From contig JALWAP010000107.1 of NCBI GenBank assembly GCA_027016315.1, positions 15,448 to 79,447 on the forward strand: a stretch of DNA of 64,000 nucleotides, read 5' to 3'. A model generated the notes under the pieces. The model was not told the DNA's origin. It saw only the letters and a list, made by a program, of their open reading frames with translations, and did not search any database. A program made the position numbers and the translations under genes. Below are positions 1 through 57,351 of this stretch, piece by piece. The stretch comes from Anaerolineae bacterium (lineage in GTDB: Bacteria > Chloroflexota > Anaerolineae > S016-19). Positions within the stretch are counted from its first letter, which is position 1, and each line of letters starts with the position of its first letter.

Positions 1-1136
1 CGACGAGCTATTTCCTGGCCCCTGAGCGAGAGGGTGATAGAAGAGGTTATCTGTGACTCTTGGGGGAGGTCTTGCTTTTCCAGCCTGCTGCTACCCTGCC
101 AGTTCACAGCAATACGACCAAAGCCTTCGGAACGTCGTTCGCCTACACCATCTTGTTGTAGACGCTCCAGTTCATCAAAAGTGAACGCATCTGCAGCAAA
201 TACAAACACGCTGCCCGCTCTTAAGGCCACAGCCTGAGGTAAAGGAGATCGCCAAGCACGATTAAAGCCTCCAACTACGGTAGTTTCGTAGTAGGCTTCT
301 TGCCAGCTGCGTTTTGGTTTACCAAGGGCTAAAGCCAAATCGTCCGTCCACTGGCCAGTTGCCGGGTGACTGAGAAGAGTATCGCTCAGTAAAGTGAGAA
401 CCAGTTTCCCGCTTTGCCGTTCATCCCCATAGGGGGTAAATTCCCGAAAATTATCGACCAGCCTCACCTCTTCTATTGAGATGGTACCGTATCCCGCGCT
501 ACGAGAGCGCCCAAGATGGGCAATGGGTTCCTGGTTTAGCAAGGCCTGGATTTCCTCCAAAACCTCTTCCTCGCCCAAAATCACCCCCTTTAACCTTTCC
601 CCTGCCGCAATGGCCTCGTAACGAAAAACTGTACTTTCCTCTTTCCCTTTGTGCATACGTTTCGGGCTGGCATTATGGTAGCGGACTTCTCTCTTTGCAC
701 GTACGAAGGTGACAACAACCTCACCTTCGTCCTCCTCCACCCGACAAAAGTCCTGACGCACACGCATGGAGTGCTCCAGGCTTTCCTTGTCTTCTTTCTC
801 CAGCAATGCGAAATCCCAGATGGGGTGTGCTTTGGCCTCAAAATCGCTCTTTTCCATTCGCCAGGAGAGAGGGACAGGCAAAGCGCGTTGACGCCGCCGG
901 TCTTCTGGATAAGCGTGCAGGTAGCAGGTACTGGGCTCCAGGAACAGCCTGCGGAAATGGGGATCCAATGCCGGGGTATCCACAGGGTGACGCTGGAGAT
1001 AACGCCCGGCCAGCAGCCCCCGCATGGCACTGCCAGGGACATACTCTAGGCTGGTCGAACTGTTTTCGCCACCAGGACGATAGGAAGAGAACAACACAGG
1101 TTGCAATGTGCGCAGGGTGTAGGTCAAGGCTTTCAT
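1..1136 (-). CDS. csx10: Type III CRISPR RAMP protein, Csx10-like (Cas5-family subunit typical of subtype III-D); N-terminal 378 codons only, C-terminus lies beyond the left edge
   Basis: Absent from the ORF track because no stop lies in the window. I read the minus frame codon by codon from ATG (1136-1134) to base 1 and found no stop. Product begins MKALTYTLRTLQPVLFSSYRPGGENSSTSLEYVPGSAMRGLLAG. It carries glycine-rich RAMP loops GRSRSAGYG and GERRSEGFGRI. The start overlaps the upstream stop in an ATGA junction (1133-1136). Confidence 0.75.
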   Translation of the reverse strand, partial: MKALTYTLRTLQPVLFSSYRPGGENSSTSLEYVPGSAMRGLLAGRYLQRHPVDTPALDPHFRRLFLEPSTCYLHAYPEDRRRQRALPVPLSWRMEKSDFEAKAHPIWDFALLEKEDKESLEHSMRVRQDFCRVEEDEGEVVVTFVRAKREVRYHNASPKRMHKGKEESTVFRYEAIAAGERLKGVILGEEEVLEEIQALLNQEPIAHLGRSRSAGYGTISIEEVRLVDNFREFTPYGDERQSGKLVLTLLSDTLLSHPATGQWTDDLALALGKPKRSWQEAYYETTVVGGFNRAWRSPLPQAVALRAGSVFVFAADAFTFDELERLQQDGVGERRSEGFGRIAVNWQGSSRLEKQDLPQESQITSSITLSLRGQEIAR

Positions 1137-1774
1137 ATGCCAATCTCCTGATAGAAACGATCGACCCAATGCTGCGTCACGTCTTGTCCGTCGCATAACA
1201 AGCTGGCTTTCAAGCGGCCGAAGCCACGGGTACGGCGTGAACCAGCACGGCGTAGGGCTTTGGTGCATACAGCGAGCAACGAGAGGTCGTCCTTGGTAAG
1301 GTTTTCTTCAAAAAAGAGAGGTGCCTGGAAAGTAGTATTTCGCAGGATAACGCGTATACTGCGCAAAGTATGGGCTTCGGGTACCCCTGTGACTTCCATC
1401 GCCGTTTGGCGACGGATTGCCGTCAAGGACTCCAAGACCTGAGAAGGTGTTAGCTTCCCCTCTTCTACCTGAGAAACCACAAAGGCGTGTAAGTCTTCAG
1501 GTAAGGCTGCATCGCCAACAGAGAGTATGCCTTTCTGCTCCCCAGGCACACCGAACAGCCGAGCCGCTGTACGCTCCCAATGCTCGCTTTGTTCCCCCAG
1601 CGCGGCCAAAGTATCGGCACACGCTTCGGTCAGGAGACCTTTCAATGTCCTTCCTCCCAAGAAAGGGAAACCCCAGCGATCATGTTGGACTTCAATGTCT
1701 ACCAAGCCGCTGACACCGTCACCGCGTGCAAAAACAGCCTCGCTTTTCAGAGTAAACTCGAGAAGGCACGTCAT
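1133..1774 (-). CDS. cas7: Type III CRISPR RAMP backbone subunit (Cas7 / Csm3-Cmr4-like)
   Basis: 213 aa with FLGGRTLKGLL and a C-terminal G-rich loop RRTRGFGRL, as expected for a RAMP. A GAGGAGGGG RBS precedes it. There is a 2-nt gap after the cas10 stop and a 4-nt overlap with csx10, so the genes are operonic. Confidence 0.7.
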   Translation of the reverse strand: MTCLLEFTLKSEAVFARGDGVSGLVDIEVQHDRWGFPFLGGRTLKGLLTEACADTLAALGEQSEHWERTAARLFGVPGEQKGILSVGDAALPEDLHAFVVSQVEEGKLTPSQVLESLTAIRRQTAMEVTGVPEAHTLRSIRVILRNTTFQAPLFFEENLTKDDLSLLAVCTKALRRAGSRRTRGFGRLKASLLCDGQDVTQHWVDRFYQEIGI

Positions 1775-1776
1775 GT

Positions 1777-3393
1777 CTACCCCTCCTCATCCAAGGGAAT
1801 AAAGAAATCCATCGCCTCAATGGCGTCAAAATATGGCGTCCGCTTACCTACCCATCCGCGTTTTTGGACCTCTGGGGAGACGCTTGCCAATGGTGGCAAC
1901 TCAGGAATTCGGTATAGTCTTCTGAAATTTTCCACGGCCTCGGGTGTGCCCTGACGGAGAACCTCTCGCAAAGACTTTACTTTATTTCGCCGATCGCGCC
2001 ATGCATCGTCCGTCTTGAAGGCCAGGGTGATCTCAACAAAATTACGCCAAGTTCGCCACCCATTATACGGGGCGAGCTCGTTCCCCAATGCCACAGGGCG
2101 CATCAGCAGTGTATGTCCACCCGGCAGATGATAGGCGTGACGAATTTCTTCCAAATCGCCAAGCAGGCCAGCACTGGCAAAATGCCAGTCCAAGGCGTTC
2201 AAATCGTGGTCACCATTGCGTTGGTCTTGAATAAACGCTTTCGCCGAGTGGTTGAGGGCCTCGGTCAAAACATACGCCTGCGCAAAAGGATAGTGGGTTT
2301 TCACAATGGCGATGCCCCCACGAGCGTAAATCGGCCATTGGTTTCCTTCTGGGCCGATCAAACGCTGCTGGGTAAGCACTTTAATGTAATGGGCGGCCAA
2401 GCCAAGCCCAAGACGGCCTTCGGTGACAAAAGTAACATCATCGCCGCCATAGACAATAGGTCGAATGGGGAGATATATCTTTCCCTTTTCATCTTTGGGG
2501 GTAATGCCGTATTCCGATTTTAACTTCTCCATATTTACGGCTAAAAGCCGGATTGTGCTCTCTAATGCAACGTGGGCGGCCCTTTTCATACTCTGAGAGA
2601 AAGCCCTCATGGCCTCCACATAGGCACGATTCTTTTCAGAAGCAGCATAATACTGGGAGAGTTTCCGAACTTTCTTTCCCATGCCATTCACGTCCACGTG
2701 AACCACTGCCATATAACTACTCTCGCCCTCGCTGCGTCCCAAGTGATCAAAATCCTTTGGAATGCCAAAGTCACCCCAAGCCCCCTTGAATTCTGTCCAC
2801 AGATACTGATGAGCATCGGAAGCAGCACGAATTTTCGCTTCAGCCTCAGCAGAGAGCAAACTCCCATTCTCCCGGGCAACAGCGGGTAAGCCGGTAAACG
2901 CCCCGGAGGCCGTAACTCCCATACCAAGAAACGGCATATCTGTAGGGCGATTTTGCTTTTGCCGGGCCAGCCTCTCCATAGTGCGTTGCACAACGCCTTC
3001 TTCACCACCAAGGGCGCACTTTCTCCAGTCAAATGGCTCAGAATGAGCCATGACCACTTGTAAGCCAGGCGCTTCACGAAGCGCCCGATGTGTCAACCTT
3101 GCGGCGAACTCACGGGCAAGTGCATCCGACGAAAACAAGACCACAGCGTTGCCACCGCCGAAATAGATTACTTCTGCATCTAATTTGCCCTCTTCTATTC
3201 TTTTGTTAGAGTCAAATATTATCTCTTTATCCTCTAACTTCACATTGCACGCTTTTGGCAATGCTTCGATAACCCAACGGCTTGTCGCTTGCTTTACAAT
3301 CCACGAAGCACCTACGTTCTGACGCAGGTGGTTTGTACCATAAATATAGGGCTGAATACCCGATGTATCGACGATAGTGAGGATGTATTCCAT
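1777..3393 (-). CDS. cas10: Cas10-like cyclase/polymerase subunit lacking an HD nuclease domain (538 aa)
   Basis: Track ORF is 1777-3447. I prefer ATG at 3393 (RBS AAGGAGAGAGCAAATG). The protein opens directly with palm-1 motif IVDTSGIQPYIYG. Palm-2 has an intact VYGGDDVTF, with GGDD encoded at nt 2437-2448. There is no H..HD motif and no room for an HD domain N-terminal of palm 1. No CxxC pairs lie between the palms. Confidence 0.85.
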   Translation of the reverse strand: MEYILTIVDTSGIQPYIYGTNHLRQNVGASWIVKQATSRWVIEALPKACNVKLEDKEIIFDSNKRIEEGKLDAEVIYFGGGNAVVLFSSDALAREFAARLTHRALREAPGLQVVMAHSEPFDWRKCALGGEEGVVQRTMERLARQKQNRPTDMPFLGMGVTASGAFTGLPAVARENGSLLSAEAEAKIRAASDAHQYLWTEFKGAWGDFGIPKDFDHLGRSEGESSYMAVVHVDVNGMGKKVRKLSQYYAASEKNRAYVEAMRAFSQSMKRAAHVALESTIRLLAVNMEKLKSEYGITPKDEKGKIYLPIRPIVYGGDDVTFVTEGRLGLGLAAHYIKVLTQQRLIGPEGNQWPIYARGGIAIVKTHYPFAQAYVLTEALNHSAKAFIQDQRNGDHDLNALDWHFASAGLLGDLEEIRHAYHLPGGHTLLMRPVALGNELAPYNGWRTWRNFVEITLAFKTDDAWRDRRNKVKSLREVLRQGTPEAVENFRRLYRIPELPPLASVSPEVQKRGWVGKRTPYFDAIEAMDFFIPLDEEG

Positions 3394-3419
3394 TTGCTCT
3401 CTCCTTAATACTGCAAAAT

Positions 3420-4652
3420 TCACATATGGGCCGATTTGCGGATCCACGCCTTGAGATACTCGGCCAACTCTGGTAACTCCTTAGGGCCAAAAGCCTTCAC
3501 ATGCCCCTCCGTTAACCAATCCTCATCAACTTCGCGCTCGATTTTAGCAGGGTCATCATACATTGAGACCAAAGCTGTATGGGCTTCATCCCCTCCCATC
3601 TGGTGGGAGCGCAGATACGCTTCAAACAATTTACTCTTACACAAAGACTTCCTGCCGTCGGTAGTGCAAGAGACTGCAAACAATTGGTATCCTCTTAAAG
3701 CCGCTACATCGAACTCAAAATGTTTATCCGCCTCCGAGGGAGTCTCAATGTTCATTCCCACCTCGTGCAAATCAACCTCTGAGGCAATGCGCTGGAAGGA
3801 CATCAAGACATAATGCTCCAGCCATTTGCCTGCCAGCCACTCAGCCAAGTGCTCGACGTTCCACTTTTTGTGGCCAACCCGAGACCTCAGACCATCTTCC
3901 AAGTCACCTAAAGACAAAGCCGTAGACATCCCAAAAGCCTGAAATACTCGTCCGGGCGGCCCCGATGAGGGTAAAGGCACCTCTCTCAAATCCCTCTTAC
4001 TCTTAAACTTGATGAATCTCGGGGGCCGTCTTAGATTTTGAGCACACCACTCGCGCCACTTTTCTCGTGAAATTCCGTCAGCGTGAATTTCAACCAGCAC
4101 CTTAATGACTTCAGGAAACCACACTTCAGCCGCAGGCTCTTTTTTGAGAGTGCGACCATGTAACTGCATCAAGGTCCGAAGGGGTAAACGGCAATCTGTC
4201 CCCACTTTGCGAACGTGAGTAGACCCATCAAGTTGCTCAATCCTCATTGCCAATTCCCTAGCATCCAGGTAACTGAATACGGCGTCGGAGCGCTTATCTG
4301 CAACAGCCCGATAAGCGTGAACAGCCATCGCTTTGGTGCCCCCCGTGTAATGCAAACCTATACTTCCTCTATCAGCAAACTCTTGGACCAGATCACCAAC
4401 CGCTTTGTAAATTCGTGAAGCATCTGTCCAATGAATTTCCCGCGGGGCAGGGACTTTCCATTTTTGGGCGCTCTGTTCAAAAACTTGCTTCAATCGCTCA
4501 GCGATCGCATAAGTATCTGCCGTAGCCAATAAAACGATAGTGCCCTCTGGTTTGGTGAGTAAACATCCGGCTACATAATTCGGCAGCGGATTCGTACCAA
4601 CTAGCAAGAACAGCACATCCGTCTGATATGCTTTCCACCGTTCACTTGGCAT
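3420..4652 (-). CDS. CARF domain + PD-(D/E)xK-fold protein, Can2/Card1-like cOA-sensing effector (catalytic ExK position substituted)
   Basis: Track ORF is 3420-4688. ATG at 4652 has a GGGAGGGG RBS, giving 410 aa. N-terminal CARF-type motifs are LFLLVGTNPLPN and LHYTGGTKAM. The C-terminal nuclease-fold motifs are GKWLEHYV, FEFD(315)V and then LFAVSCTT. Where relatives read I-E-C-K-T (from memory), this protein reads S328-C-T330 (nt 3663-3671). Confidence 0.75.
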   Translation of the reverse strand: MPSERWKAYQTDVLFLLVGTNPLPNYVAGCLLTKPEGTIVLLATADTYAIAERLKQVFEQSAQKWKVPAPREIHWTDASRIYKAVGDLVQEFADRGSIGLHYTGGTKAMAVHAYRAVADKRSDAVFSYLDARELAMRIEQLDGSTHVRKVGTDCRLPLRTLMQLHGRTLKKEPAAEVWFPEVIKVLVEIHADGISREKWREWCAQNLRRPPRFIKFKSKRDLREVPLPSSGPPGRVFQAFGMSTALSLGDLEDGLRSRVGHKKWNVEHLAEWLAGKWLEHYVLMSFQRIASEVDLHEVGMNIETPSEADKHFEFDVAALRGYQLFAVSCTTDGRKSLCKSKLFEAYLRSHQMGGDEAHTALVSMYDDPAKIEREVDEDWLTEGHVKAFGPKELPELAEYLKAWIRKSAHM

Positions 4653-4727
4653 AAGCCTTTCCCCTCCCTGCGTCTTATAATACTTCACTCTCCACCTTTT
4701 TACATCAGAACAACCTCTGAAATCCCC

Positions 4728-5609
4728 CTACTTTTCCCCAAACCACCTCCTCATCACCGGCAGGCAGGGGGCGAAATGCTCCCGGACGAAGTGATAGCTG
4801 ATGTACTCATCAGGCTCCAGGCCCCACGCGTTCCGGCATTCGTCCAGGATCGGGGTCTTGTGAGAGTCCACCGTCTTCAGCGTGATCACCAGCTTCTCGG
4901 CCACCTCCTGCGGTGTCAGGCCTTCGGCAAGCGCAATCAGCGTCTCTCGCTGGCGGGGCGTCAGCCGCTCCCACACCTGCCTGCACCGCTGGATGCTCAT
5001 GGCGTCCAGCATACGGGTGTAGGAAGAAAGAGCCTCCGATGGAGAAACCCCGGCCAGCATCCGGAGCGTGGGGAAATACGCCCCCCACGGCGCCATCGGT
5101 ATCTGGATCAGGCGAACGTTTTCCCCTGTAGGGTCGTGCAATATCGCACCATCCCGGGCGCGTTCCAGAAAATCCGCCTCCGTGAACATATGCCACGCCC
5201 TGTCCTGATGCCCGAACATCAACATCGCCGCAGAAAGCGCCATGAACCCGATCATCCTACGCCCACCTGCCAGCACCAGGTGCAGGCTCCGCTCCTCGTC
5301 CTTCAGGCTCCTGACCAGATTCCACACGTCCATCCAGACCGCTTCTGCGTCCGCCTCCGTCCTCACATCGCGGAGCGGCTCGCCCGAAGGTCTGCGCAGC
5401 AGGTGCCTTCGGAACCGGACCTTCCTGCCAGCGTAGGAACCTCCTGCGAACTCCCGCGCCAACTGAGAAAGCGCCCTGTTCACCCTGACATCCTCCGGCG
5501 ACAGATGCAGCACCACCACCTCGTCCACGCCATCGTCGAGCAGCAAATCGGCGGCGAAAGTCACCACCTGCGCCTGCCCGCCCATCGTAACCACCAGAGT
5601 TTTTCCCAC
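4728..5609 (-). CDS. CARF-like sensor domain fused to a C-terminal LuxR/GerE-type HTH (putative cOA-responsive transcription regulator)
   Basis: GTG start with a GGGGGAGAA RBS. N-terminal motifs LVVTMGGQAQVVTFAADLL and LVLAGGRRMIGF resemble the NE0113-type CRISPR-associated Rossmann (CARF) family, recalled from memory. The C-terminus LTPRQRETLIALAEGLTPQEVAEKLVITLKTVDSHKTPIL is a canonical LuxR-family HTH. It is the first gene of the minus-strand cas operon. Confidence 0.75.
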   Translation of the reverse strand: MGKTLVVTMGGQAQVVTFAADLLLDDGVDEVVVLHLSPEDVRVNRALSQLAREFAGGSYAGRKVRFRRHLLRRPSGEPLRDVRTEADAEAVWMDVWNLVRSLKDEERSLHLVLAGGRRMIGFMALSAAMLMFGHQDRAWHMFTEADFLERARDGAILHDPTGENVRLIQIPMAPWGAYFPTLRMLAGVSPSEALSSYTRMLDAMSIQRCRQVWERLTPRQRETLIALAEGLTPQEVAEKLVITLKTVDSHKTPILDECRNAWGLEPDEYISYHFVREHFAPCLPVMRRWFGEK

Positions 5610-5624
5610 ATTCTCCCCCGAATA

Positions 5625-5640
5625 TCAGAGATTTCTCCGA
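5625..5640. promoter_or_regulatory. Imperfect 16-bp inverted repeat in the divergent control region (candidate operator)
   Basis: TCAGAGATTTCTCCGA matches its own reverse complement at 12 of 16 positions (half-sites GAGA / TCTC). It lies 16-31 nt upstream of the CARF-LuxR GTG start and about 50 nt upstream of the AAA-Csx3 ATG. Confidence 0.25.
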
Positions 5641-5691
5641 TGCAAACCCCGCCTTTCTGAGTTAAACTTGTACCGAGAGGAGCGAAAGACC

Positions 5692-6798
5692 ATGTCCGAA
5701 TTTCCGGCCATCCTCATCGGCGGCCCGCCCCACAGCGGGAAATCGGTGCTGGCGTACCACCTGACCCGCAGACTCCGCCAGCTCCGGGTGGATCACTACG
5801 TCCTCCGGGCCTACCCCGACGGAGAAGGCGACTGGAGCTACGAAGCCGACCAGAACCTGGTCCGCGCCATCAGAATCAAAGGCATCGGCGACGACAGATG
5901 GGTCGCCAGGATACGCCGCGACATCGCCCGAAGGCACCTGCCGCTCATCGTGGACGTGGGCGGCAAACCCACCCCGTCCCAGGAAACCATCTTCGACGAA
6001 TGCACCCACGCCATCCTCCTCTGGCCCGACGAGATCGCCCATCAGGAGTGGATCTCCCGCATGGAACGCCACGGCCTGCCGATCATCGCCGACCTGCACT
6101 CATCCCTCAATGGCACCGACGAAATCGCCTCCACGGGACCGGTGGTACGGGGCACCATATCCGGGCTGGACAGAACCAACCCGAAGCTCGGACCGGCGTT
6201 CGACGCCGTGTTCGAAAAAGTTGCCGGACTCTTCGCCACCGACAGGGAAGCCCTGCGCCGGAAGCACATCCTGGAAGCTCCGGTGGACCTGGCGATAGAC
6301 ATCGAACGACTCGCCTACACCCTGAAAGTCCCCGGCAACCCACCCCGATGGCGTCCGGAGGACATTCCGGCGCTCATAGACTACCTGCCGGAGCACAAGC
6401 CGCTGGGAGTGTACGGCAGGGCCCCTTGCTGGATATACTCGGCGCTGGCGGCCTATTCGCTTCCCGCCGAATTCTGGCAGTTCGACCCAAGGTACGGGTG
6501 GATGAAGCCGCCGACACTCCGCATTTCTGGGAAGTGGAACGATGCTCCGTGGACTGTGATGTATTCCCAGGAAGGTAAAGTTATTCGCCTGTATTTTGCT
6601 CTAAGGCACCACTACGTGGACCCGATAGACGCTGGAGGGCAACCTGTACCAAAAGTCGCTCCCGAACGCTCAGTCATCCTGGAAGGCAAACTCCCTCTGT
6701 GGCTTTTCACGGCTTTGACCAGAACTTACGCTCCGTATCATGCAGTGTTCGTATCTCAACCCCAGCTTTCGGACAAGCCGGTAAAAGTCTCTAAATGA
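5692..6798 (+). CDS. csx3: P-loop NTPase fused to two tandem Csx3 (Crn3 ring-nuclease-type) modules
   Basis: Track ORF starts at TTG 5668. ATG 5692 has a GAGGAG RBS, giving 368 aa. Walker A is ILIGGPPHSGKS and Walker B-like is PLIVDVGG. Module A (about aa 198-275) reads LGVYGRAPCWIYSALAAYS..FWQFDPRYGW. Module B (about aa 286-365) reads VILEGKLPLWLFTALTRTYAPYHAVFVSQPQL. Both mirror the A. fulgidus Csx3 core VVISGRGPIWLHCFLAHKYHH..VAVYDPRLG, recalled from memory. Confidence 0.8.
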   Translation: MSEFPAILIGGPPHSGKSVLAYHLTRRLRQLRVDHYVLRAYPDGEGDWSYEADQNLVRAIRIKGIGDDRWVARIRRDIARRHLPLIVDVGGKPTPSQETIFDECTHAILLWPDEIAHQEWISRMERHGLPIIADLHSSLNGTDEIASTGPVVRGTISGLDRTNPKLGPAFDAVFEKVAGLFATDREALRRKHILEAPVDLAIDIERLAYTLKVPGNPPRWRPEDIPALIDYLPEHKPLGVYGRAPCWIYSALAAYSLPAEFWQFDPRYGWMKPPTLRISGKWNDAPWTVMYSQEGKVIRLYFALRHHYVDPIDAGGQPVPKVAPERSVILEGKLPLWLFTALTRTYAPYHAVFVSQPQLSDKPVKVSK

Positions 6799-7222: not shown

Positions 7223-8632
7223 CTACGGGGTCCATATGGTCGTCAGGTCCTTCGAGTTGTTGGATTCATTGCTCTCGGGAACCTGATTTTCCGCATCCAC
7301 TACTGCTCTTTGGTGTCTGGTTTGCTGTGAGCTACAGGTAAAGGTGAACGAGTAACTCGTGCTCCAGGTCGCTCCTGCATTCAAACCCGAAACAGTGGAT
7401 TGTCTCATTGGGCTCGGCGCGCTCGAGCTCCAATAGTAGTAGACCTCGAAACTCCCTGCCGCCACGTTACCCACATTCTTCACGGTGATATGGACCCAGT
7501 AGGAATCTCCGCAGTGCGGATTGGGCTTCGACGTGAAGCTGGAGACGATCAAATCCGGCTTCAAAGTGAACACCGGAGTCGGCAAAGAAAGGCTTGGCAA
7601 GACGTTTATCGTGACATGCCTGTCTTCGGCGGTCCCGTCGGATTTTACGATGTGCAGCGTATACGTCTTGTTGGCCGAAGGACATACCTGCTTGCTGCCG
7701 TGTCCAGCGACTCCGGCGCCTTCGAGGTACACTGCCTGAACACCCTCCACATCCCAATGAAGATTCGTGCACTGACCGTTGAAGATGCTCGCCTTGTCCG
7801 ACCAGAAATTAGCCTGAAAAGCTGCGCCCTCGCCTGCCTCTGGCGGGGACGTAGGTACGGCCGTCGGAGGAGCAGGTGTCGTTCCCGGGGCTTCCGATGG
7901 GATCGGAGGGACATCCGCAACCTGTACGTTTTCCACATTGCTCGGAGAGACGTAAGCGGCTGCGACCCAACCGCGCCGCCCGGTGTCGGCTGGAAACTCG
8001 ATCTGCCACCACGCTCCGGTCGGGTCCTTGCCGGTGATGACGGCGCTGTTTCCTTTCTGCAGCACCCCGACCTTCGGATAATCAGTGCCTGGGCCAGTAC
8101 GCACGTTCAGATCAACCGCAGCCACCAGGCTTGGGACGGATGGAACTGGGGTATCCGGCTTCTTCGTTGCCGTAGGTTCCTTCGTCGCTGCAGCAGCCGC
8201 AGGCGGCGTCGAGGTGGGAGGCGCCGGAGTTGGCGACGCTTCTGCCGTTTTCGGCGCCACGGATATCACCAGAGGAAACGGCGACGGTTGCGTTCCATCG
8301 TGGCAATACCCCCGTGCTTCCAGAGAGTAAGTTCCGGCGGAAGTTGGCATCCATTTGAACGTTACCGGAAGTTCCTTCGGGTAGCTACCTTGCGGGGCAT
8401 CCGCTCGTCCGATTGCAGCCCCGTTCACCCACAACTCCACCCTTTCCACGCCGCTGCCACATGCGGCCTTCACTTTCACGTCAATCGTATCGTTGGAGAA
8501 TACAGCGCTCCCCGGAGCAGGAGATTCTATCACGATGGCCGACCCACCGGTCGGAAGTTTCGAATGGGTACATGCTGTCAATAGCAAGACAAACGAGAGG
8601 GCCAGTAGGAAGAAGAATTTCGGGCGATGCAT
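7223..8632 (-). CDS. Secreted multidomain lipoprotein (Ig-like, SH3b and CARDB-like domains, Pro/Thr-rich linkers)
   Basis: Track ORF is 7223-8725. I prefer MHRPKFFFLLALSFVLLLTAC (signal peptide plus lipobox, ATG 8632). The SH3b-like stretch is DLNVRTGPGTDYPKVGVLQKGNSAVITG..WWQIEF. The C-terminal CARDB-like stretch is PDLIVSS..ITVKNVGNVAAGSFEVYYYW..NESNN. Confidence 0.8.
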   Translation of the reverse strand: MHRPKFFFLLALSFVLLLTACTHSKLPTGGSAIVIESPAPGSAVFSNDTIDVKVKAACGSGVERVELWVNGAAIGRADAPQGSYPKELPVTFKWMPTSAGTYSLEARGYCHDGTQPSPFPLVISVAPKTAEASPTPAPPTSTPPAAAAATKEPTATKKPDTPVPSVPSLVAAVDLNVRTGPGTDYPKVGVLQKGNSAVITGKDPTGAWWQIEFPADTGRRGWVAAAYVSPSNVENVQVADVPPIPSEAPGTTPAPPTAVPTSPPEAGEGAAFQANFWSDKASIFNGQCTNLHWDVEGVQAVYLEGAGVAGHGSKQVCPSANKTYTLHIVKSDGTAEDRHVTINVLPSLSLPTPVFTLKPDLIVSSFTSKPNPHCGDSYWVHITVKNVGNVAAGSFEVYYYWSSSAPSPMRQSTVSGLNAGATWSTSYSFTFTCSSQQTRHQRAVVDAENQVPESNESNNSKDLTTIWTP

Positions 8633-9009
8633 TTCACTTTCCCCTTTCGGCAACCTGTGCCTGCTTGAAAGCGGTACGGATTTTGTCGACGATCGAATTA
8701 TATTCGAAAATTTTCTCATCGTCAAATTTTTCTAAAATCAACAAAAACTCGCTAATCCAAGGACCTTTCCCCCCAGCGGGATTGTACCAACCCCCGCATG
8801 GTCGCCACTACCCGACCATAACGCCAAAGGGAGTAAGCCCACAGCGGTTGGCGCTGCTCAAACAGGACGAAAATCTATCGGGAGAGAGTCAGAGGGAACG
8901 CCAAGACGGGATTCGGAACCGGGGTCATGGCCTCGGCTCACCTCATTGACAAAAACCTCTTCGGCATGGTATCTCTCCATAGGTGAAAACTTTCGAGTGG
9001 TCGAGGAAC

Positions 9010-13746: not shown

Positions 13747-15750
13747 TTACTTGACGTGGAAGTTGAACATCACGTCGGTGCGGACGACCTCGGGCTGCCC
13801 CTTGTACAAGCGGAACTTGCCGTTCGGCTTGTCCGTAGGCTTGCAGGTGAAGTCCTTGGTGTCCTGGTTGTAGGTGCAGAGCTCGCCGACCATAGGATCG
13901 ACCTGGCTCACATACTGGAACGGAACAGCGATGAAGTCGGCATCGCCGGCCTTGAACATGGCGAAGCGGGTGCCCCACTCCTTCACGTTCTTGATCACGA
14001 CGCTCGAGAGTTTGGCAGGACCGCTGGGGCCGCCATCCCAAGCCGGCTTCGTCCGCCAGTATCCATCGAACCTCTTGAGGACAAGCTCCGTCCCCTTGGT
14101 CCAGTGATCCAGCATGAACGGGCCAGTCCCGTTCTCCTTGTCGGTGAACGGATCGTCCTCAGACGACACACCGTAGTACTTCGTCCAGGTATCGCAGGTG
14201 CCGTCCCAGCCGCCGTTCTTGATGACCCACTTCTTGTCCATCACAGAGCCCCAGCTCTGAGCGATGGTCGCCAGGAACGGGCCCCAAGGCTGAGCCAGCT
14301 TCATGGTCACGGTGCCCTTCTCGTTGTCGAAGGTGATGGCGTCCATGACCTTCTGGCAGGCTGCCTTCAGCTTGGCAGGATCGGCCTTCTGCAATTTCTC
14401 GGTGTCGCCTTCCAGATCGGGGTTGATCAGGTCGGCGATGTCGTACTTGCCAACGCCGAAGAACGGCTCGGTCAGCAACCACTGCGGCGAGTCAGGCCCG
14501 CCCTGCAGCAGACCACGGCGGAACGAGTAGGCAACATCCTCGGCCGTCATCTCGTCGCCGTTGTGGAACTTCACACCCTTGCGGATGTAGAAGGTGTAGG
14601 TCTTGCCATCAGGCGAGATCTCCCACTTGGTGGCCAGCTGAGGCACGAACTTCGTAGGATCGTTCTTCTTGTAGGTGATCAGGGTTTCGTAGGTGTTGTC
14701 GATGATCTCGGCGCCAGCCGTCTCGTAGCAGAGGGCCGGATCAAGTGTCTCAGGATCACCGATAGTCGCCACGACGAAGGTGTCAGGGTTCTTTGCGGTC
14801 TTGTCCTTGCTGTAGGCATAGTAGTAGCCGCCAGGATAGACCGGGTTGTAGTACCACCCTTTCACCCAGCGCTGCTCATAGTGTCGACCGGTGGGAACGG
14901 CACCGCGAATAGCGATAGCATACTCGTAGTCGAGCTTGGTGAGCTCCTTGTAGATCTCCGCACGCTTGGCAGGATCGGTCTCGGAAACACCCTCGTCGAC
15001 CAGCTTCTTGAACTTAGCGACCATGTCCTTCGGCAGGTTCTGCCGGCGGGCGTAGGTGCCGATCATGAACGGCTGAGCCCAGTTGTGCGGGTCATGGATG
15101 TCCTCGAGCCACCCGCTTACGAAGATCGGGAGCTTGCCGGAGCGGATGTTCCGCAGGAACGTAGGCCACGGCAGAGCGATGATGGAAATCTGGAATTTGT
15201 CGTTGACCTGGGCAACGTTCTGCTGCAGGATCTCCGCAATGGTCCGGCGGGTGTCGTTGCCGGTGTTGTAAGCGATGGTGAAGCGGAAGCCCTTCTCCCA
15301 GACCTTGCCGCCCCAGGCTTTCTTGAACTCCTCCTCACATTTCTTGGGATCGTAGCTGTAGTGAGGAGCATTCGGGTCGTAGCCCAGCATTCCAGGGATC
15401 AGCGGGCCATAGCACTGGACGGCCTCACCATGGAGCGCTTCCTTGATGTAGGTATCCCAGTCGAAGCAGTAGTTGAATGCTTTCCTGACATGGATGTCGC
15501 TGAAGAAGTCAGGCGGGATACCGTTCCCGTCCAGCTTGCCGCTCCCGATAAACGGATTGCTCACCGGCGTCGGGGTGATCACCTTCTCTACGACCTTGGT
15601 CTTCTCGATGACCTTGGTCTGAACGACTTTCTTCTCAACGATCTTGGTCTGAACGACCACTTTCGGTGTGGGCTTGGCGCATGCCGCAGCAATAAAGCTG
15701 ACGATCAGCAGCAAGCTCAGCACCAGCATGAACTTCTTGTTACGCCACAT
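13747..15750 (-). CDS. ABC substrate-binding lipoprotein, family 5 (peptide/nickel type)
   Basis: The signal peptide plus lipobox is LLLIVSFIAAAC. A repetitive linker VVQTKIVEKKVVQTKVIEKTKVVEKV follows. The body is family-5 SBP-like (TFYIRKGVKFHNGDEMTAEDVAYSF). Confidence 0.9.
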   Translation of the reverse strand: MWRNKKFMLVLSLLLIVSFIAAACAKPTPKVVVQTKIVEKKVVQTKVIEKTKVVEKVITPTPVSNPFIGSGKLDGNGIPPDFFSDIHVRKAFNYCFDWDTYIKEALHGEAVQCYGPLIPGMLGYDPNAPHYSYDPKKCEEEFKKAWGGKVWEKGFRFTIAYNTGNDTRRTIAEILQQNVAQVNDKFQISIIALPWPTFLRNIRSGKLPIFVSGWLEDIHDPHNWAQPFMIGTYARRQNLPKDMVAKFKKLVDEGVSETDPAKRAEIYKELTKLDYEYAIAIRGAVPTGRHYEQRWVKGWYYNPVYPGGYYYAYSKDKTAKNPDTFVVATIGDPETLDPALCYETAGAEIIDNTYETLITYKKNDPTKFVPQLATKWEISPDGKTYTFYIRKGVKFHNGDEMTAEDVAYSFRRGLLQGGPDSPQWLLTEPFFGVGKYDIADLINPDLEGDTEKLQKADPAKLKAACQKVMDAITFDNEKGTVTMKLAQPWGPFLATIAQSWGSVMDKKWVIKNGGWDGTCDTWTKYYGVSSEDDPFTDKENGTGPFMLDHWTKGTELVLKRFDGYWRTKPAWDGGPSGPAKLSSVVIKNVKEWGTRFAMFKAGDADFIAVPFQYVSQVDPMVGELCTYNQDTKDFTCKPTDKPNGKFRLYKGQPEVVRTDVMFNFHVK

Positions 15751-16876: not shown

Positions 16877-17871
16877 GATGCAACTCCGCCTTCCATGTCC
16901 ACCCAGCAGGCGATGCGATGTCCTGGACCAACTTCCCTGAGTTCCGGCTTTTCGTGCAAGCACCTTTCGGTTCGATACTCGCACCTCGGGGCGAAAGGAC
17001 ACCCTGGAGGCATGTCAATCAGATTTGGGGGCAGACCTTTGATCGGGGTCAGTTTCTTTTTCCTCGGGCGATCCATGCGCGGGATCGACCTGAGCAAGCC
17101 CAGCGTGTATGGGTGCTTTGGATTGCCGTAAAGCTCCTTCACAGGAGCCGATTCCACGATGCTTCCTGCGTACATCACGATCACCCTATCGGCAAGCCCG
17201 GCCACGACACCCAGATCGTGGGTTATCCAGATCACCGACATGCCTATCTCCTTTTGGAGCTTCTTCACCAAATCGACGATCTGTGCCTGGATGGTCACGT
17301 CGAGCGCCGTAGTCGGCTCGTCTGCGATCAGAATCTGGGGATTGCAAGCAAGCCCCATGGCTATCATCACCCTTTGCCGCATACCGCCGGAGAATTGATG
17401 AGGGTAATCCTTGAGCCGTTTCTCCGCGTCCGGTATCCCGACCATTTCCAGCAACTCGATGGTGCGCTCCCTGGCTTGCTGCTTGTTCATCCCCATATGC
17501 AGCTGAAGCGCCTCCATCACCTGGAATCCGATGGTCAACACCGGGTTCAGGGAAGTCATCGGGTCCTGGAAGATCATGGCGATCTTGTTGCCGCGGATAT
17601 GCCGGATTTCCGAATCCGACATTTTGAGAAGGTCTTTGCCTTCGAACCAAACCTCCCCGCCGGTTATCTTGCCGGGGGGATGCGGAATCAACCGTAGGAT
17701 CGACAAAACGCTGACGCTCTTACCGCTCCCGCTTTCCCCGACGATGGCAAGGGTTTCTCCCTTGTCGAGGGTATATGAAATCCCGTTTACGGCATGAACC
17801 ACCCCATCCTGGGTAAAAAAGCGGGTTTCAAGGTTTTTGACCTCAAGCAAAGCTCCCATGCAGACCTCCAC
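16873..17871 (-). CDS. ABC transporter ATP-binding protein, OppD/DppD-type
   Basis: Walker A is GESGSGKSV, the signature is FSGGMRQR and Walker B is [20 protein letters not shown] precedes the start. An alternative start is the inner ATG at 17859. Confidence 0.9.
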
Positions 17872-18201: not shown

Positions 18202-18723
18202 TTATCTTTCGATCCCATCCCTCGAGGTCACGCCCGAGGTCTTGTAGTAATGCTTGATCTCGCCCATTTCGGTCACCAGGTCGGCGAACTCGATGGCCTC
18301 CTGTGGAGCGTACCTGCCCGTCAGAACCACCTCGACGCCATCGGCGCGGGATTCGACGGCGCTCCTCACCTCGTCCCAGGTCAGCAGCCCGTAGAACATC
18401 GCCACGTTGACTTCGTCCATCACCACGACCCGATACCTGCCGAAGGCAAGCGCCTCCCGCACCCTGGCAAGCCCCGATTCTGCCGCTTGTACGTCCTTTG
18501 GGTCTGGGCCGGAAACATGTCCGGGACGCCCGAACAGTTCCACTGTCACCAGGTCGCTACACCGTTCTTTCAGCATGGCGACCTCGCCGTAGGGGATCGA
18601 TTTCAGGAACTGCCCCACGAAGCAGCGCATTCCCCGCCCTGCAGCCCGGACCACGAGGCCGATTGCTGCGGTGGTCTTTCCCTTGCCGTTGCCGGTGTAA
18701 ACGTGCACGAACCCTTTCGCCAT
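18202..18723 (-). CDS. cobO: Cob(I)yrinic acid a,c-diamide adenosyltransferase (CobO/BtuR type)
   Basis: MAKGFVHVYTGNGKGKTTAAIGL..VVMDEVN..GEIKHYY. Track ORF 18202-19575 adds an implausible Arg/Gly-rich N-terminus that overlaps the ADH gene. ATG 18723 abuts the ADH stop (TGATG). Confidence 0.9.
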   Translation of the reverse strand: MAKGFVHVYTGNGKGKTTAAIGLVVRAAGRGMRCFVGQFLKSIPYGEVAMLKERCSDLVTVELFGRPGHVSGPDPKDVQAAESGLARVREALAFGRYRVVVMDEVNVAMFYGLLTWDEVRSAVESRADGVEVVLTGRYAPQEAIEFADLVTEMGEIKHYYKTSGVTSRDGIER

Positions 18724-56970: not shown

Positions 56971-57351
56971 GCTGGGGGTTGCTCCCCCGTTTTGGTCGAG
57001 TCAGGCAACTCGACCTACAGGTATTCTGTAGGGCGAGCCGTCTGGCTCGCCCTGTCGAGCTAACAGCTTGACCTACAACCACGCAGAGGCGCGCCCACCG
57101 CTTTGGTCGAGTCAGGCGACTCGACCTACACGTGCTTTTCGGTCGAGTCAGACGACTTGACCTACGGCGTGCTTTGTAGTGGCGAGCCGTCTGGCTCGCC
57201 ATGTCGAGCTGACAGCTCGACCTACGACCACGCAGAGCGCGCTCCCCCACTTTGGTCGAGTCAGGCGACTCGACCTACACGTGCTCTTCGGTCGAGCCAG
57301 GCGACTCGACCGACGGCGTGCTTTGTAGTGGCGAGCCGTGTGGCTCGGGGC
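56971..57351. repeat. Tandem array (about 2.5 copies of a roughly 148-bp unit) of composite palindromic (REP/BIME-like) elements
   Basis: Unit 57102-57249 is repeated from 57250 as a truncated copy. A shorter copy at 56991-57101 lacks the second hairpin. Each full unit holds four different hairpins: GGTCGAGTCAGGCGACTCGACC, GGTCGAGTCAGACGACTTGACC, GGCGAGCCGTCTGGCTCGCC and GTCGAGCTGACAGCTCGAC. Confidence 0.85.

Follow-up and report, generated by a model that had tools for sequence, protein, structure and literature searches.

We uncovered a CRISPR-Cas locus at the left end of a 64,000-nucleotide (nt) stretch of an Anaerolineae bacterium genome (assembly GCA_027016315.1, contig JALWAP010000107.1, positions 15,448 to 79,447 of the forward strand; the whole of this stretch is hereinafter the window). 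This part of the window very probably represents the promoter-proximal half of an intact locus that is a composite of types III-D and I-B and signals via accessory proteins responsive to cyclic tetra-adenylate (cA4). An initial annotation of this DNA had described five tightly packed minus-strand genes and a divergently transcribed gene for a P-loop-Csx3 fusion protein; open reading frame (ORF) calls on the window place all six at the claimed positions, and with their immediate surroundings they are laid out as follows:

1136 to beyond base 1, minus strand: csx10 (the type III-D Cas5), with the first 378 of its 522 codons inside the window
1133-1774, minus strand: cas7, stand-alone, 213 amino acids (aa), matching the PADLOC profile Cas7_IIId
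1777-3393, minus strand: cas10, 538 aa, HD-less, with GGDD at residues 316-319, matching PADLOC Cas10d
3420-4652, minus strand: can2 (CARF plus PD-(D/E)xK nuclease), 410 aa, matching PADLOC CARF4--CARF_PDDEXK
4728-5609, minus strand: the CARF-LuxR gene (Cas_NE0113/CARF3 plus a helix-turn-helix (HTH) of the LuxR/GerE class), 293 aa, matched by Pfam and PADLOC
5624-5641, strandless: near-palindrome of 18 nt, ATCAGAGATTTCTCCGAT, in the divergent intergenic region, a candidate operator
5692-6798, plus strand: the P-loop-Csx3 gene, 368 aa, matching PADLOC AAA-Csx3 and divergent from the CARF-LuxR gene
7223-8725, minus strand: a lipoprotein gene convergent to the P-loop-Csx3 gene, with a signal peptide, an LLTAC lipobox and Big_7, SH3_3 and CARDB domains

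The start of csx10 overlaps the stop of cas7 by 4 nt and a gap of 2 nt separates cas10 from cas7 (the labels CARF3 and CARF4 are PADLOC profile names). On the right the locus ends, as had been claimed, at about 6.8 kb against the convergent gene with the LLTAC lipobox. Repeat searches found no CRISPR array within the 64-kb window, and PADLOC and Pfam scans recognized no Cas family among its other 38 large ORFs, which are housekeeping genes (e.g., those for Rho, exonuclease VII, ComEC and ABC transporters). The earlier statement that no array, cas6 or cas1/cas2 lies on this side thus holds for the entire window.

The effector operon continues to the left of the window. An exact-protein look-up recovered 10 metagenome contigs that carry the same Cas10, and one of these, L001 (ENA ERZ23491340, scaffold_130), shares 99.85% identity with the window and extends past its base 1 by 4,771 nt, supplying the rest of csx10, then cas7-2x, csx19 and cas7-insertion, and finally an ORF of 48 codons corresponding to the 5′ part of csx15. 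The minus-strand order of the effector operon accordingly reads can2, cas10, cas7, csx10, cas7-2x, csx19, cas7-insertion, with the last 3.5 genes situated left of base 1. The gene identities first proposed were upheld by strong, full-length matches to Cas-family rather than non-Cas profiles in PADLOC, with which NCBIfam and Pfam concur (the latter with RAMPs, Cas10 palm2, Card1_endonuc, Cas_NE0113 plus GerE, and Cas_csx3). The part of Csx10 in the window matches the PADLOC profile Cas5_IIId PDLC02090 at 3e-102 (1.5e-135 at full length, as completed from L001), and weakly matches the Cas5 portion of the Cas7-Cas5-Cas11 fusion protein (PDB 8s9t_A) in the III-Dv-type complex from Synechocystis sp. 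PCC 6803. Cas7 matches PADLOC Cas7_IIId PDLC02113 at 3.5e-70 and residues 6-220 of 8s9t_A at E = 7e-05; its D26 aligns to the catalytic D26 of that fusion, for which a D26A mutant is listed (PMC11026444). Cas10 is recovered by PADLOC Cas10d (2.9e-126) and matches the III-Dv Cas10 (PDB 8s9t_C) at 6.4e-26, with the GGDD motif aligned. It is devoid of an HD domain, as it begins directly in Palm1, its residue 4 pairing with residue 19 of 8s9t_C, and its sole HD dipeptide is at residue 396. Further downstream, the 462-aa Cas7-2x encoded by L001 matches PADLOC PDLC02111 (7e-119) and PDB 8s9t_D (2.2e-31) and retains equivalents of the catalytic D29 and D33, the 187-aa Csx19, which lies outside the window, is detected by PADLOC (3.3e-35) and by Pfam PF27799, and the 717-aa Cas7-insertion protein matches PADLOC PDLC02114 (3e-190) and gRAMP (5.9e-32). 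Catalytic residues are kept in Cas7 (D26), Cas7-2x (the D29/D33 equivalents), Cas10 (GGDD) and Can2. These profile matches assign the locus to type III-D, as had been proposed from the co-occurrence of an HD-less Cas10 with csx10; csx19 is also present in the operon.

Within type III-D, the closest solved relative is the III-Dv system of Synechocystis (PDB 8s9t; PMC11026444), with which our locus shares the order cas10, cas7/cas5 unit, cas7-2x, csx19, cas7-insertion, including both the Cas7-2x double fusion and the insertion-containing Cas7. The two systems are also alike in having a Cas10 with GGDD and no working HD, and in direct sequence matches for Cas10 (6e-26), Cas7-2x (2e-31) and Cas7 (7e-05) in which the catalytic aspartates align. 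They differ in three respects: here cas7 (213 aa) and csx10 (522 aa) each have an ORF of their own, whereas III-Dv has a single Cas7-Cas5-Cas11 fusion; the accessories here are Can2, CARF-LuxR and P-loop-Csx3, as against Csm6 and Csx1 in Synechocystis; and cas6 and the adaptation genes probably belong here to an adjoining type I-B module. Membership in III-Dv proper was rejected, the Cas7-Cas5-Cas11 fusion being absent. Since cas7 and csx10 are unfused and the order is otherwise that of III-Dv, the effector layout is intermediate between III-D1 and III-Dv. A Cas10 search of genome contigs returned only distant relatives, of 43-47% identity, from an Anaerolineales metagenome-assembled genome (MAG) and two archaea of the anaerobic methanotrophic (ANME) type.

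The initial annotation had proposed extending the contig leftwards, and on near-identical scaffolds such an extension brought to light the remaining effector genes and a complete type I-B module with cas6 and cas1-cas2-cas4, as well as an array. All the contigs with the same Cas10 stop a few dozen bases past the csx15 fragment, inside the start of the next ORF. Pfam named nothing for this 25-residue start, and two exact-match scans of Joint Genome Institute metagenome contigs gave no match to its sequence; two further scaffolds, L020 and L021, contain the whole gene and reveal it to be Y1_Tnp. L021 (scaffold_8094, from the same assembly as L001) opens with the 55 nt with which L001 ends, at 100% identity, and encodes, in order, an IS200-type Y1 transposase, a full csx15, cas8b, a 128-aa gene product, cas7b, cas5b and cas3. 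L020, which shares 98% identity with L021, runs on through a relB-like gene, cas6, a 23S-rRNA-IVP-like gene, cas1, cas2 and cas4, and at its very end has the repeat GTTTCATCGCGTAGACCCGAGGTTGAGGG twice, with a spacing of 73 nt. Summed over the L001, L021 and L020 pieces, the array would lie about 16.5 kb left of base 1 of the window; Rfam recognized no family of CRISPR repeats, whether in the window or at the array of L020. Furthermore, a Cas8b of the same 90%-identity cluster (P0186, not encoded in the window) is carried by an NCBI contig of 109,160 nt, and the exact Cas10 and Csx3 proteins of the window are likewise found on a 109,160-nt contig. That the window connects to the I-B module is inferred from the 55-nt scaffold overlap together with these contigs of matching length.

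Some further features of these scaffolds deserve mention. The Y1 transposase gene (L021 1-645; L020 454-1067), which lies between the 48-codon csx15 fragment and the full csx15, is a single ORF in L021 and is split into ORFs of 158 and 49 aa in L020; a hairpin, GGGTAGGCGACGGCAnTGCCGTCGCCTACCC, occurs once within it and once after it. Both L020 (9602-9988) and the relative L018 (17872-18258) encode, between cas6 and cas1 of the I-B adaptation module, a conserved 128-aa four-helix protein of the 23S_rRNA_IVP/bAvd-like type (Pfam 5e-37). L001 itself departs from the window in the Csx3 gene, where L001 7262-7361 and window 5978-6032 show a 100-nt discrepancy with a 55-nt duplicated overlap; this resembles a scaffolding gap and splits the gene in L001 (a 245-aa call), the window copy being intact.

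The CARF-nuclease encoded next to cas10 can be placed more precisely. It matches PADLOC CARF4--CARF_PDDEXK at 1e-121, Pfam Card1_endonuc at 3.2e-08, and the Can2 of Thermoanaerobacter brockii (TbrCan2, PDB 8q3y) at 2.8e-27, the last over two aligned stretches of 45-52 bits each. The motifs that define clade-1 Can2 proteins are E-ExD-SxTTS-K in the nuclease and NxTGGTK in the CARF domain (PMC10783487). The counterparts here are E279, E313-x-D315, S328-C-T-T-D, K341 and E344 in the nuclease and, in the CARF domain, GTNPLPNY at residue 19 and YTGGTK at residue 102, on the strength of which we assign it to the clade-1, III-D-associated Can2 proteins. It shares with TbrCan2 the architecture of a CARF domain, an insertion and a PD-(D/E)xK nuclease, the GTNPLPNY and xYTGGTK cA4-binding motifs, and the active-site residues E279, E313, D315, S328, T330, T331, K341 and E344. 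The two differ in that S360 is replaced by Asp here, E364, which determines base selectivity, by Ser, and the N of NxTGGTK by His. With Ser in place of E364, the preference of TbrCan2 for CA dinucleotides need not hold in this protein.

By homology with these characterized systems, the workings of the locus might be pictured as follows. The Cas6 of the neighboring I-B module would make the CRISPR RNAs from the shared array, and the III-D complex would then bind complementary phage RNA and cut it at the conserved Cas7 aspartates. Given a Cas10 without a DNase, its output would be second-messenger synthesis at GGDD, the messenger being most likely cA4. Released cA4 would activate the clade-1 Can2 to degrade single-stranded DNA and RNA, would bind CARF-LuxR and alter transcription, the likely target being the divergent promoter region that its gene shares with that of P-loop-Csx3, and would also be bound by the tandem Csx3 modules of the P-loop nucleoside triphosphatase (NTPase). 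As to the messenger, there are several precedents: The Synechocystis III-Dv complex has no working HD, keeps GGDD, makes cyclic oligoadenylate (cOA) upon target binding and thereby activates Csx1 (PMC11026444); TbrCan2, the nearest Can2 relative with a solved structure, binds only cA4 and is a cA4-specific nuclease on single-stranded DNA and RNA (PMC10783487); Csx3 is a cA4 binder (PMC7371418); and the cA4-binding Csa3 structures 6wxq and 6w11 are among the Foldseek matches of CARF-LuxR.

The P-loop-Csx3 protein had been taken for a putative cOA degrader with two Csx3 modules. It matches the PADLOC AAA-Csx3 profile C3a67 over its full length (1.2e-117), the profile representing cluster 67 of Shah et al. 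2019 with Caur_2269 as type gene (PMC6546367), and at E ≤ 1e-10 this family has more than 1200 relatives, mostly in Chloroflexota. The AlphaFold2 model (predicted local distance difference test score (pLDDT) of 87.5) shows a P-loop NTPase at residues 1-170, a divergent Csx3-like module at about 196-285 and a clear Csx3 module at about 286-368. Despite the family name, the NTPase looks to be of the kinase or SIMIBI type rather than AAA+, resembling GPN-loop GTPase, MinD, FtsY and APS kinase in Foldseek searches. Of the two modules that had been claimed, the C-terminal one is clear (Pfam Cas_csx3 at 9.2e-11; AfCsx3, 3wzg, at a template modeling (TM) score of 0.76 and a root-mean-square deviation of 1.4 Å), and the middle one is only a divergent, partial copy, as indicated by a profile self-comparison with hhalign in which residues 232-260 match 322-350 (probability 83%, E = 8.9e-6). 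In stand-alone Csx3, the residues H57, H60, D69 and R71 are essential, H57 and H60 are absolutely conserved, and the H60A mutant is inactive (PMC7371418, on AfCsx3). At these four positions the C-terminal module has R344, A347, Q356 and Q358, the QPQ being conserved across the fusion family; the middle module has R243, D265 and R267 where AfCsx3 has R46, D69 and R71, on the face that binds cA4; and neither module aligns a counterpart of H57 or H60. Across 46 homologs the Walker A K17/S18 and the Walker B D88 are invariant, as are R243, W247, D265 and R267. Thus, it resembles stand-alone Crn3/Csx3 (AF1864; PMC7371418) in the fold of its C-terminal module and differs in having two Csx3 modules per chain, with the D69/R71 pair in one of them only and no match for H57/H60.

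Because the catalytic histidines of Crn3 are lacking in both modules, we consider a cA4-sensing NTPase more likely than a classical Crn3 ring nuclease; we hold this with only moderate confidence, as the sequence alignment to AfCsx3 is weak. It is nonetheless possible, if doubtful, that we are dealing with a true ring nuclease of the Crn3 type, which would reset the system by degrading cA4, the NTPase being accessory to that activity. Such a function would fit the clear Csx3 fold and the invariance of R243, D265 and R267 on the cA4-binding face, and it would furnish the off-switch that the locus needs, given that in vitro no activity as a ring nuclease was seen for Csx15 (PMC12409355). Yet it would have to operate without the otherwise absolutely conserved histidines, the substitution of one of which suffices to inactivate Csx3, and with R, A, Q and Q at the catalytic positions of the C-terminal module, and the literature describes the function of the fused domain as unknown (PMC12409355). 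The earlier designation as a degrader is hence weakly founded, there being only a D/R pair in the middle module.

Sensing of cA4 may likewise explain the CARF-LuxR protein. It combines a Cas_NE0113 domain (Pfam 7.2e-30; PADLOC CARF3--CARF PDLC01855 at 3.2e-104 over residues 3-281) with a GerE-type HTH (2.1e-07), and is modeled with a pLDDT of 94.5. The CARF domain of Cad1 is its best Foldseek neighbor (TM 0.76-0.80), alongside Csa3 (E = 3e-6) and the Crn1 ring nucleases, and the HTH has VraR/FixJ as neighbors. The two-domain arrangement defines a family of modest size, with at least 88 full-length representatives at E ≤ 1e-30, mostly of 280-320 aa. We propose that the protein most likely works in the manner of the Csa3 of Saccharolobus (PDB 2wte, 6w11, 6wxq), as a cA4-responsive transcription factor: Both have a CARF domain at the N terminus and a DNA-binding HTH at the C terminus, and the predicted role common to both is the coupling of cA4 to transcription. 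They differ in the class of the HTH, here LuxR/GerE, and in the family of the CARF domain, here Cas_NE0113/CARF3. The Pfam Csa3_N model matches at E = 0.023, under the cut-off; hence, CARF-LuxR may act like Csa3 and yet be no member of the Csa3 family. A candidate operator for such a LuxR-type regulator is the near-palindrome ATCAGAGATTTCTCCGAT (5624-5641), which is unique in the 64-kb window against a chance expectation of 0 matches and whose counterpart in the relative L019 is a perfect palindrome at the same place, within a conserved intergenic block. It was seen only through the alignment with L019, the inverted-repeat and promoter scans of the intergenic regions having found nothing above background.

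It is rather improbable that CARF-LuxR is instead mainly a Crn1-like ring nuclease carrying an HTH, like Sis0811, and not a cA4-dependent transcription factor. Its Foldseek neighbors do include the Crn1 enzymes Sso2081, Sis0455 and Sis0811 (E of 1e-5 to 5e-4), there are weak NCBIfam matches to the Csm6 ring-nuclease model (TIGR02584, cas_NE0113) and to Csx14, and the family has a nearly invariant T8 at the end of CARF strand 1. However, the cA4-binding regulator Csa3 is an equally good structural neighbor, the family keeps the LuxR/GerE HTH at full length together with a C-terminal C258-x3-W262 helix, and the conserved palindrome lies in the promoter region of the CARF-LuxR gene itself. Moreover, the two roles are not mutually exclusive.

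There is little to recommend a non-cOA messenger such as SAM-AMP (the adenylate of S-adenosylmethionine), as used by type III-D2 and by the III-B system of Bacteroides fragilis. It is true that III-D2 complexes, relatives of III-Dv that also have no HD domain, produce SAM-AMP and SAM-AMP2 (PMC13294483). However, these complexes are built from Cas7x3 and Cas7-5 fusions and signal to a CorA effector, a layout that differs from the one seen here, and CorA turned up neither in the PADLOC scan of the window nor among the 25/53 Pfam families listed nor among the genes of the extension scaffolds. In addition, Cas10 has GGDD here as against the D347/E348 mutated to inactivate the III-D2 Cas10, all three accessories carry CARF or Csx3 sensors, which are known cA4 binders, and the nearest solved relative, III-Dv, makes cOA. 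On the grounds of the mismatched layout and of the lack of CorA among the listed matches, we rejected III-D2/SAM-AMP signaling for this locus.

An orphan or decaying III-D module cut off from any array by a transposase insertion, an alternative the initial annotation had raised in the form of a decayed remnant, is suggested by the Y1 transposase and truncated csx15 between the III-D and I-B modules and by the array-free 64 kb on the right, but is highly unlikely in view of nine intact genes that are identical or near-identical in 10 contigs from different samples, and of the full csx15, I-B module, cas6, adaptation genes and array beyond the insertion. The effector is not decaying, because can2 and all the effector genes show ratios of nonsynonymous to synonymous substitution (dN/dS) of 0.14-0.29, i.e., purifying selection, and no stop codons relative to L014 (Cas10 89% identical). 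Together with the genes and array that probably lie to the left, this means that the locus is intact and not a decayed remnant.

Several points nevertheless weigh against the overall picture of an intact, cA4-signaling composite locus. The window and the I-B module are joined across scaffolds pieced together rather than on one continuous sequence, and the array is seen only in the 98%-identical relative L020. csx15 is duplicated, with one copy truncated beside the transposase, so some rearrangement has occurred. Csx10 scores below the curated equivalog cut-off of NCBIfam TIGR02674 (E = 2.9e-35; 122 versus 177 bits) on the truncated protein in the window. The sequence alignment between the Csx3 modules and AfCsx3 is weak (E of 0.025-0.1), though the fold match is good. 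Finally, the identity of the messenger as cA4 is read from the accessory set.

The accessory load had been regarded as unusual, with a sensor-effector, a sensor-transcription factor and a putative degrader beside one Cas10. It is not, because the same trio in the same order flanks the III-D modules of the relatives L014, L015 and L018/L019, and because each of the proteins matches its own published profile (PADLOC; PMC6546367). The locus is thus a further example of a catalogued kind, with a conserved and already known accessory set. Comparison with these relatives nonetheless points to a mosaic history. Relative to L014, the window shows 90% identity for can2, 89% for cas10 and 82-92% for the other effector genes, against 40% for CARF-LuxR, 38% for P-loop-Csx3 and 58% for Cas8b. 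Relative to L018/L019 (GCA_054037055.1), the figures are 37% for can2 and 45% for cas10, against 72% for CARF-LuxR, 71% for P-loop-Csx3 and 87% for Cas8b (for Cas8b the identities are those of P0186, encoded on the 109,160-nt contig). With can2 and the effector closer to those of L014, and the flanks closer to those of L018/L019, the can2-plus-effector block has been exchanged as a cassette between lineages, the flanks following the host lineage in their evolution. One junction of this cassette may be marked by the csx15 5′ end that is duplicated beside the Y1 transposase. As a tentative extension of this idea, one might speculate that the divergent pair of CARF-LuxR and the P-loop protein with its two Csx3 modules is a resident cA4-responsive control module, past which Can2-plus-III-D cassettes are swapped by recombination. 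The tandem-Csx3 NTPase would then be no ring nuclease but a new kind of P-loop effector or regulator triggered by cA4, in which the two Csx3 modules of one chain form an asymmetric, intramolecular pseudo-dimer as the sensor.

The relatives show additional features of their own. In L014, tandem 7-nt repeats (CGCCAAC / CGCTAAC) occupy the intergenic spaces that separate the I-B cas genes (15466-15549, 17059-17163 and 18251-18362) and also occur after the CARF-LuxR gene (about 5575-5610). The Cas7-insertion protein of L018 (7141-9324) has a Pfam match to the cold-shock domain (CSD), and the 717-aa protein of the window lineage (L001 15768-17921) matches RAMPs only. In the Anaerolineales MAG (L007 9324-11744; Cas10 47% identical), the III-D genes are followed by a split ABC/AAA ATPase pair, which matches the NsnB, PDC-M55A and AriA-like defense profiles, and then by csx15, with no I-B module at that position. 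The archaeal relatives L008 (Methanobacteriota MAG122, array at 1-736) and L009 (Candidatus Methanogaster, array at 2185-2378), with Cas10 identities of 43-44%, have CRISPR arrays on the III-D contig itself, and the archaeal repeat GTGTGAAAAGTAGACCCGATCAATAGGGGATTGAAAC has the core GTAGACCCGA in common with the L020 repeat. Within the window, an intergenic region at 56984-57347 contains 5 copies of an element of about 39 nt with an internal hairpin, GGTCGAGTCAGGCnACTCGACC; their arrangement is that of a 149-nt unit repeated 2.4 times, and they resemble palindromic repeats of the repetitive extragenic palindromic (REP) type.

In sum, the locus leaves the current understanding of type III signaling unchanged, its points of some interest being the non-canonical tandem-Csx3 NTPase, the cassette exchange and the transposase-associated duplication of csx15. 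It would provide an intact example, from an uncultured Anaerolineae-like lineage, of a step between the multi-subunit III-D1 and the fused III-Dv effectors, in which the III-D effector is coupled to a type I-B module that provides cas6, the adaptation genes and the array. The exchange of the can2-plus-effector cassette between conserved flanks illustrates the way in which type III modules pass from one lineage to another. As a lead, the P-loop-Csx3 fusion is the most useful: It belongs to an abundant family, and its residue pattern in this locus suggests cA4 sensing over cleavage.

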